This document shows, piece by piece, positions 20,759-21,232 of a DNA stretch of 40,339 nt. The DNA is taken from NCBI RefSeq assembly GCF_003334815.1, contig NZ_QOWO01000034.1. The stretch is one strand, 5' to 3'. The notes under the pieces are model-generated. The model was not told where the DNA came from and made no database searches. It saw only the letters and a list, made by a program, of their open reading frames with translations. The position numbers were made by a program, and so were the translations under genes. Within the stretch, counting starts at the first letter, position 1; every line of letters starts with the position of its first letter. Origin of the DNA: Escherichia coli. Its GTDB lineage: Bacteria > Pseudomonadota > Gammaproteobacteria > Enterobacterales > Enterobacteriaceae.

Positions 20759-21232
20759 ATGAACCGGTTTATTATTGCGGATGCGACGAAATGTATCGGT
20801 TGCCGTACCTGTGAAGTGGCTTGCGCAGTGTCGCATCATGAGAATCAGGATTGCGCTGCGTTGTCACCAGACGAGTTTATTTCCCGTATTCGTGTCATTA
20901 AAGACCACTGCTGGACCACGGCAGTAGCCTGTCATCAGTGTGAAGATGCACCGTGCGCGAATGTCTGCCCTGTTGACGCGATAAGCCGCGAACATGGGCA
21001 TATTTTCGTTGAACAAACACGTTGCATTGGCTGTAAAAGCTGTATGCTGGCTTGCCCGTTTGGTGCGATGGAGGTCGTTTCTTCGCGCAAAAAGGCGAGG
21101 GCGATTAAGTGCGATCTGTGCTGGCATCGGGAGACGGGACCGGCCTGTGTTGAAGCCTGCCCGACAAAGGCGTTGCAGTGCATGGATGTCGAGAAAGTGC
21201 AGCGGCATCGGCTACGGCAGCAGCCTGTTTGA
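20759..21232 (+). CDS. ysaA: ferredoxin-like protein with four 4Fe-4S cluster motifs (HycB/HydN-like)
   Basis: Trimmed to ATG at 20759 after aaggag RBS (157 aa MNRFIIADATKCIGCRTCEVACAV...); four Cys clusters (CIGCRTCEVAC, CHQCEDAPCANVCP, CIGCKSCMLACP, CDLCW...CVEACP). Confidence 0.85.
   Translation: MNRFIIADATKCIGCRTCEVACAVSHHENQDCAALSPDEFISRIRVIKDHCWTTAVACHQCEDAPCANVCPVDAISREHGHIFVEQTRCIGCKSCMLACPFGAMEVVSSRKKARAIKCDLCWHRETGPACVEACPTKALQCMDVEKVQRHRLRQQPV

Follow-up and report, generated by a model that had tools for sequence, protein, structure and literature searches.

The best solved relative of YsaA is HycB, the small subunit (subunit 2) of the Escherichia coli formate hydrogenlyase (FHL; PDB 7Z0S/7Z0T, chain B), a four-cluster relay that docks on FdhF and is essential for H2 production. 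Its clusters B1-B4 are part of the relay from FdhF to the hydrogenase, and the loop between its third and fourth Cys motifs binds HycF and HycE in the FHL structure (PMC9474812). HycB-type four-cluster proteins also occur in the hydrogen-dependent CO2 reductase filament (PDB 7QV7), where HycB3 and HycB4 join formate dehydrogenase to another enzyme. The closest paralogue of YsaA is HydN, encoded in the E. coli hydN-hypF operon and 64% identical to it. AegA and YgfT, named in NCBIfam as formate-dependent uric acid utilisation proteins, carry ferredoxin domains of this kind at their N-termini. In the published tree of these proteins, YsaA lies beside HydN within a group that also holds HycB, HyfA, AegA, YgfS, and YgfT, and the beta subunits of the FdnH, NrfC, DmsB, and HybA type cluster apart (PMC6004506).

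The family, stand-alone position, deletion phenotype, and interaction partners of ysaA were already published in 2018 (PMC6004506). Deletion of ysaA lowers the benzyl-viologen-linked activity of FDH-H to 57%, and this artificial-dye assay in extracts gave the only phenotype; H2 production is unaltered, whereas it is abolished by deletion of hycB (PMC6004506). The ysaA deletion is complemented by either pysaA or phydN, but pysaA fails to rescue a hydN deletion (PMC6004506). In two-hybrid assays, YsaA and FdhF gave a signal of 694 MU, barely over the cut-off of 600 MU, in one fusion orientation only; the other signals were ∼4000 MU with HycB, ∼3000-4600 MU with HydN, and ∼6000 MU with AegA, the strongest of all, and further contacts were recorded with HycF, HyfA, FdnH, NarH, NuoE, and YsaA itself (PMC6004506). 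The author cautioned that ferredoxin-like proteins may bind nonspecifically if their true partner is absent, noted that HydN resisted over-production, and concluded that HydN and YsaA probably open routes for FDH-H electrons to non-hydrogen acceptors, with a role in maturation unlikely (PMC6004506). The initial annotation of this locus, made from the sequence alone, had set the solitary position of ysaA against the usual placing of such genes inside hydrogenase, formate dehydrogenase, or oxidoreductase operons. This position is no open puzzle, since the same work identified a partner, FdhF, whose gene lies elsewhere; results likewise exist there for the phylogeny, the deletion phenotyping (FDH-H activity reduced, H2 unchanged), and the interaction screen that the annotation had proposed (PMC6004506). 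In part of the later literature citing this study, YsaA is named in reference lists only.

The window analysed here is the whole stretch of 40,339 nucleotides, an E. coli chromosomal segment with the gene order yibF-selAB-yiaY-aldB-yiaWVUT-sgb/yia operon-yiaJ-ysaA-avtA-malS-bax-xyl-glyQS. The ysaA coding sequence occupies positions 20759-21232 on the plus strand, as an intact open reading frame of 157 codons and a stop (ATG at 20759, TGA at 21230-21232), and is named in RefSeq E. coli as ysaA, "4Fe-4S dicluster domain-containing protein." We favour the ATG at 20759 over a GTG at 20753 because the N-terminus that it yields, MNRF(I/V)IAD, is conserved across the HycB/HydN/YsaA family. Read directly from the sequence, a Shine-Dalgarno element AAGGAG (20748-20753, plus strand) ends 5 nt before this ATG, and its GGAG core is found at the same position in 35 aligned orthologous upstream regions. 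The flanking genes are those given at the outset, in agreement with the RefSeq E. coli annotation: yiaJ (19809-20657, plus strand) upstream, on the same strand and separated from ysaA by 101 nt, and avtA (21383-22636, minus strand) downstream, in convergent orientation. Within the 40-kb window, there are no genes for a hydrogenase, a formate dehydrogenase, or another oxidoreductase, and the description of ysaA as standing without redox partners nearby therefore holds for the entire window. Of 5426 complete E. coli genomes, 5371 have this locus at ≥80% coverage.

The four Cys motifs of YsaA lie at residues 12-22 (CIGCRTCEVAC), 58-70 (CHQCEDAPCANVC), 89-99 (CIGCKSCMLAC), and 118-134 (CDLCWHRETGPACVEAC). 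The initial annotation counted 16 Cys in the 157-residue protein, which is correct for the motifs; the total is 19, with C32, C51, and C141 as extras. It had named loss of the motifs on careful alignment as grounds for rejecting the assignment. They are retained: all 16 motif Cys are invariant in an alignment of 71 relatives, 34 from the YsaA clade and 37 from the HydN clade. C141 is also invariant within the YsaA clade, and C51 is not conserved there. From these motifs, YsaA is predicted to bind four [4Fe-4S] clusters.

In Pfam, YsaA matches Fer4_11 (E = 1.8e-12) and many other Fer4 families. The top NCBIfam model is the HydN equivalog (NF007658), with 214.6 bits, under the cut-off of 260 bits, compared with 376.7 bits for a true HydN, that of Cedecea. 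The next models are AegA (residues 1-154, 176 bits) and YgfT (residues 1-149, 137 bits), both scores being far below the respective cut-offs of 1003 and 1154 bits; the N-terminal ferredoxin domains of these proteins align with the whole of YsaA, which is the ferredoxin module alone, without their glutamate-synthase-like C-terminal domain. The best PDB match is HycB of the E. coli FHL (7z0s_B, E = 2.8e-36), followed by HycB3 and HycB4 of 7qv7 (E = 2e-34 and 7e-34). FdnH, NrfC, DmsB, and HybA share the Fer4_11 four-cluster architecture, but the matches are much weaker: against the models of Tat-exported or membrane-bound beta subunits, YsaA stays far below the cut-offs for DmsB (85 of 214 bits), NrfC (59 of 378), and FDH-beta (50 of 335), and far below that for HybA too. 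No signal peptide, membrane anchor, or hydrophobic tail was found in YsaA, whose first Cys motif begins at residue 12. The AlphaFold model is poor (mean pLDDT 58), and its top Foldseek matches, 7qv7_A, 7qv7_B, and 7z0s_B, have a TM-score of only ∼0.43 with rmsd above 10 Å. On the NCBIfam and PDB scores, then, YsaA is a HycB/HydN-type four-cluster protein, as had been proposed from the sequence, but the curated cut-off separates it from HydN itself.

YsaA and HydN both begin with MNRFIIAD and carry four Cys motifs of the same kind at identical spacing, and the two proteins share a mild phenotype in the FDH-H dye assay and overlapping two-hybrid partners. YsaA is, however, ∼20 residues shorter: 13 residues that HydN has between motifs 3 and 4 are missing, as is some of the C-terminal tail. 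With HycB, the N-terminal strand and the order of the motifs are identical, although YsaA is not encoded in the hyc operon. In the alignment, nothing in YsaA corresponds to HycB residues ∼105-136 (∼32 residues, between motifs 3 and 4), a difference in loop length already remarked by Pinske in 2018 (PMC6004506). These residues belong to the loop by which HycB attaches to HycF and HycE, and their absence would explain why YsaA touches FdhF and yet cannot replace HycB within FHL in H2 production. Self-association of YsaA and its HycB-like contacts would fit a habit of building wires similar to that of HycB3 and HycB4; YsaA differs from these in its short C-terminal tail and in having no linked hydrogenase or formate dehydrogenase gene.

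To place ysaA among its relatives, we scanned species-representative genomes and sorted the loci, at least 80 in all, by their neighbouring genes. Among the loci listed, 34 carry ysaA-type genes, coding for 151-184 amino acids (most for 151-166). The convergent array avtA-malS-bax-xylR lies downstream in every ysaA-type locus listed that extends far enough, and fdhF, hyc, and hypF are absent from all 34. The hydN-type genes present the opposite picture: among the loci listed, fdhF adjoins the hydN-type gene in 30 of ∼46 from Enterobacterales, usually in the arrangement hycC-G ... hydN-fdhF-hypF, and hypF adjoins it in 14 more. Adjacency to hypF or fdhF is thus seen in none of 34 ysaA-type loci versus ∼44 of 46 hydN-type loci among the at least 80 listed. 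Three taxa, Cedecea, Buttiauxella, and "Enterobacter sp. Ag1," have the FHL island (hyc-hydN-fdhF-hypF) directly against avtA, in the slot that ysaA has in E. coli; NCBIfam confirmed the gene identities in Cedecea neteri (HydN with the 376.7 bits given above, Fdh-alpha with 907.8 bits). No separate ysaA locus of these three taxa occurs among the at least 80 loci listed.

Upstream of ysaA, the neighbours are far less constant. Among the loci listed, yiaJ is found in about half, elsewhere the upstream gene is yiaT, aldB, or yiaY, and in four it is selB directly, at a distance of 126-149 nt in Kosakonia sacchari, Enterobacter sp. Bisph1, and a soil metagenome-assembled genome (MAG) and of 791 nt in Klebsiella oxytoca. 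Given this variation, the E. coli interval of 16 kb from selB to ysaA is variable cargo. The initial annotation had put selAB at about 17 kb and called the proximity probably coincidental. The genes are indeed distant, with the selB stop at 4324 and selAB 16.4 kb upstream of ysaA, but given the adjacency of selB in some genera, the dismissal as coincidental may have been too quick. Since the taxa concerned are closely related, adjacency of selB and ysaA is weak evidence of a functional link.

In a neighbour-joining tree (distance-based and rooted on Morganellaceae), the avtA-linked proteins form one long-branched monophyletic clade, sister to the short-branched HydN clade. Between E. coli and ten other species, the dN/dS of ysaA is ∼0.05-0.22 where dS can be estimated, with a median of 0.13 over all pairs, indicating that the gene is under purifying selection. 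In the same species pairs, the dN of ysaA is three to five times that of hydN. In a DT99 strain of Salmonella Typhimurium, ysaA is disrupted (PMC3853940). Taken with the elevated dN, this disrupted allele shows that ysaA is dispensable in some settings.

The region 5' of ysaA contains two conserved blocks. The first, GATCAAAGC (20699-20707, plus strand), lies at -60 from the ysaA ATG, and its consensus GATCA(A/G)(A/G)GC is found 60-66 nt 5' of the ATG in 33 of 40 ysaA-position loci, irrespective of the upstream gene. The second, TCTCTGGCACTCTG (20721-20734, plus strand, at -38), is centred on CTGGCA and follows 13 nt past the first; TGGCA and the CT after it are invariant columns in an alignment of 35 sequences, and they too are kept whichever gene lies upstream. 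Several known types of element were considered for these sequences. Block 2 includes a perfect CTGGCAC, as in a sigma-54 promoter, but nearly every species has TT, not GC, at positions -13/-12, and we reject this assignment. The true hydN promoters of the same genomes read TGGCAC-N5-(A/T)TGCA and are accompanied by FhlA-like inverted repeats, and ysaA lacks this sigma-54/FhlA-type upstream region. An FNR or CRP site is not supported, as the ATCAA half-site alone is conserved and the left half agrees at no more than one of five positions. No sigma-70 promoter was found by a scan of 19600-21500. A weak RpoE peak (intensity 4.2) was reported by genomic SELEX in the yiaJ/ysaA spacer (PMC5493296). 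An RpoE promoter for ysaA is nevertheless unlikely, because a TCTGA-like element is present but GGAACTT is absent at the right spacing and the -35 is not conserved. We also discarded a hairpin sequestering the Shine-Dalgarno element (CACTCT/GGAGTG), which appeared in single-sequence folds; RNAalifold on 35 sequences returned neither a consensus structure nor covariation.

Expression of ysaA is documented. Its mRNA is found with polysomes, and MazF cuts it at an ACA lying 75 nt ahead of the start codon (PMC5001579, Table 1). By position, we matched the cleavage site to the ACA triplet at 20684-20686 (plus strand), so the leader extends to at least -75. A terminator scan found none between yiaJ and ysaA. 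Together with the length of the leader, this makes read-through from yiaJ into ysaA likely. Members of the Enterobacter cloacae group and Lelliottia have no such spacer at all, and their ysaA begins 3 nt after the yiaJ stop. Consequently, although ysaA has its own RBS as initially stated, this does not imply an independent transcript.

With moderate confidence, we propose that YsaA is a soluble four-cluster wire that is provided to FdhF in trans, as an alternative small (beta) subunit, and carries electrons to acceptors other than hydrogenase 3. The gene would be an orphaned, fast-evolving paralogue of hydN, and its product a soluble cytoplasmic protein in which four [4Fe-4S] clusters, arranged in a row, form a short HycB/HydN-type electron wire. 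YsaA would dock on FdhF, the selenoprotein formate dehydrogenase H, whose gene lies far from ysaA, and would receive electrons from its single [4Fe-4S] cluster. From YsaA, these would pass to acceptors other than hydrogenase 3, likely via HycB-like ferredoxin domains such as those of AegA, HydN, or HycB. The sequence features of YsaA, its homology, the published phenotype, the two-hybrid contacts, and the neighbourhood pattern of the HydN clade are established; from these, we infer the binding of the clusters, the direction of electron flow, and the final acceptor. Passage of formate electrons through YsaA or HydN would bear on how enterobacteria use formate beyond hydrogen production. To this question, our comparison adds modest handles, namely the adjacency of hydN and fdhF, the anchoring of ysaA to avtA, its position immediately behind selB or its replacement by an FHL island in some genera, the missing loop, and the upstream block conserved across genera.

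One could go further and regard ysaA as the remnant of an ancestral cluster of selAB, a hydN-fdhF-hypF/FHL island, and avtA, since specialised as a dedicated adaptor of FdhF to a non-hydrogen acceptor, for example, in the AegA/YgfT formate-dependent urate pathway, and controlled through GATCAARGC-N13-TCTGGCAC.CTG. We put this extended scenario forward as speculation and think it rather doubtful in its entirety.

Among other explanations, YsaA might be a redundant back-up of HydN without a pathway of its own, a promiscuous cytoplasmic wire, retained by weak selection and binding to whatever HycB-like surface it meets. Complementation of the ysaA deletion by phydN is what such redundancy would predict, and promiscuity would fit the range of ferredoxin-like proteins that gave two-hybrid signals with YsaA, FdnH, NarH, and NuoE among them. 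The longer branches of YsaA, its dN of three to five times that of HydN, and the disrupted allele in the DT99 strain point the same way. However, the dN/dS of ysaA is still low, the 16 cluster Cys and C141 are invariant throughout the clade, and the gene has been maintained along with its conserved upstream block in at least 34 species-level genomes. Moreover, FdnH and NarH are bound by YsaA but not by HydN or AegA (PMC6004506). We consider the back-up role unlikely.

Even less probable, in our judgment, is that YsaA acts transiently in the assembly or activation of FdhF, inserting cofactors or clusters or delivering the enzyme to FHL, and is not an electron-transfer subunit at all. Pinske raised this possibility. 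It would be consistent with the drop of FDH-H activity while the level and migration of the FdhF protein are unchanged, and with the finding that purified FHL does not contain YsaA (PMC6004506). Yet the same author judged it unlikely, given that the phenotypes of the single mutants are mild and that supplying hydN in extra copies causes no competition with HycB in H2 production. The ysaA deletion still makes functional FdhF, as its FHL-dependent H2 output is normal, and YsaA has a complete four-cluster relay homologous to that of true beta subunits.

That YsaA serves its neighbours, being the redox partner either of AvtA or of the yiaK-S sugar-acid pathway under YiaJ control, is very improbable: the 101-nt, terminator-free spacer behind yiaJ, the leader reaching at least -75, the 3-nt gap between the two genes in the Enterobacter cloacae group and Lelliottia, and the constant presence of avtA at the listed loci that extend that far would all suit such a role, but yiaJ precedes only about half of the listed ysaA genes while the upstream block is kept before the others, the genes divergent from yiaJ vary by genus (TRAP, MFS, or ABC transporters), avtA is convergent with ysaA and not co-transcribed, its product is a PLP enzyme that needs no Fe-S partner, and the FDH-H phenotype finds no explanation in these neighbours.

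Downstream of ysaA, the hairpin and REP cluster noticed in the initial annotation were both recovered. The hairpin (21239-21262, plus strand) begins 7 nt past the ysaA stop and has a perfect 10-bp stem, TTCCGGCGTT / AACGCCGGAA, closed by the 4-nt loop TCTC; it lacks a T-run and was not scored as an intrinsic terminator. In Salmonella, Citrobacter, Kosakonia, and others, the gap between ysaA and avtA contains GC-rich hairpins of different sequence. The first REP element, GCCAGATGCGGCGTAAACGCCTTATCCGGCCTAC (21280-21313, plus strand), was identified by pattern match. A second, inverted REP (21348-21378, minus strand) has the inverted-repeat arms I1, I2, and I4 and a fold z-score of -6.0, forms a BIME-like pair with the first, and occurs in Escherichia loci only. 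We took as REP/BIME an imperfect palindrome of ∼35 nt ending in GGCCTAC, present in inverted pairs and in many genomic copies, and 21280-21378 has these properties; the 107-bp segment that contains the pair (21276-21382) has a median of 39 matches per E. coli genome. Another REP pair lies elsewhere in the window, at 7400-7481.

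The four-[4Fe-4S]-motif ferredoxin-like gene ysaA (20759-21232, plus strand) directly follows selA-selB, in the same orientation, in Kosakonia sacchari, Enterobacter sp. Bisph1, a soil metagenome-assembled genome (MAG) and Klebsiella oxytoca. Among the ysaA- and hydN-type loci scanned in species-representative genomes (designated by L numbers), the gap between selB and ysaA is 126-149 nt in L021, L022 and L024, and 791 nt in L057. The 16 kb that separate selAB from ysaA in E. coli are variable cargo, consisting of yiaY, aldB, yiaWVUT, the yia/sgb operon and yiaJ.

The chromosomal slot that ysaA occupies in E. 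coli is filled by a formate hydrogenlyase (FHL) island in four other loci. In Cedecea neteri (L038, 91-14423) this island is complete, with the order hycCDEFG ... hydN-fdhF-hypF(-nickel transporter), and abuts the convergent avtA-malS; a hyc-hydN-fdhF-hypF island ending at avtA-malS is also found in L037, L050 and L064. The fdhF ORF of L038 runs for 716 codons without interruption, indicating that this fdhF is not of the selenocysteine (TGA) type. Across Enterobacterales, fdhF directly adjoins hydN, the paralogue of ysaA, in 30 of about 46 hydN-type loci (L037-L089, among the matches listed); it has been lost from the hydN-hypF interval in E. coli, most Citrobacter species and Klebsiella oxytoca.

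A two-part conserved block, GATCA(A/G)(A/G)GC - N13 - (T)CTGGCAC.CT(G/T) (20699-20734), precedes ysaA, and its halves sit 60-66 and 38-44 nt before the ATG. The block is present at the same position in L002, L004, L006-L025, L027-L033, L036, L046, L047, L057 and L068, and is kept across genera independently of which gene precedes ysaA. It matched none of the sigma-70, sigma-54, FNR and RpoE consensus sequences, and a search for a consensus RNA fold found none. Loci of the Enterobacter cloacae group and of Lelliottia (L026, L034, L039, L063 and also L035; about 6990-7003) lack the yiaJ-ysaA spacer, which is deleted together with the conserved block. Only 3 nt remain there between the yiaJ stop and the ysaA start, which implies that the two genes form an operon in these lineages. 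In the genome of Citrobacter L007, which has no yiaJ, a short stretch before ysaA (about 5851-5880) still aligns with the yiaJ 3' end (GGGCTTTACCGTTCGCG..TAG). This points to yiaJ having been deleted along with the yia operon, as opposed to their ancestral absence.

Within the protein, Cys51 (DHCW; codon 51, 20909-20911) is not conserved: L010, from a genome labelled E. coli and only 92% identical, has DHTF at this site. C32 is found in 79% of the YsaA clade and C141 in 100%. In Salmonella Typhimurium, ysaA (STM3666) carries a gene-disrupting mutation in strain L796 (DT99) (PMC3853940), so at least one natural lineage can do without the gene.

ysaA and avtA converge, and we compared the short gap that separates their stop codons (21233-21385) with those of L002, L007, L008, L012, L013, L017, L024, L027 and L030. 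GC-rich hairpins occupy this gap in many genera, with sequences unrelated to one another, and in several Enterobacter-group loci the gap is 0-7 nt. The REP pair of this gap (21280-21313, plus strand; 21348-21378, minus strand) occurs, among the compared loci, only in Escherichia. Just 3' of aldB (7400-7481) there is a further BIME-like pair of inverted REP units.
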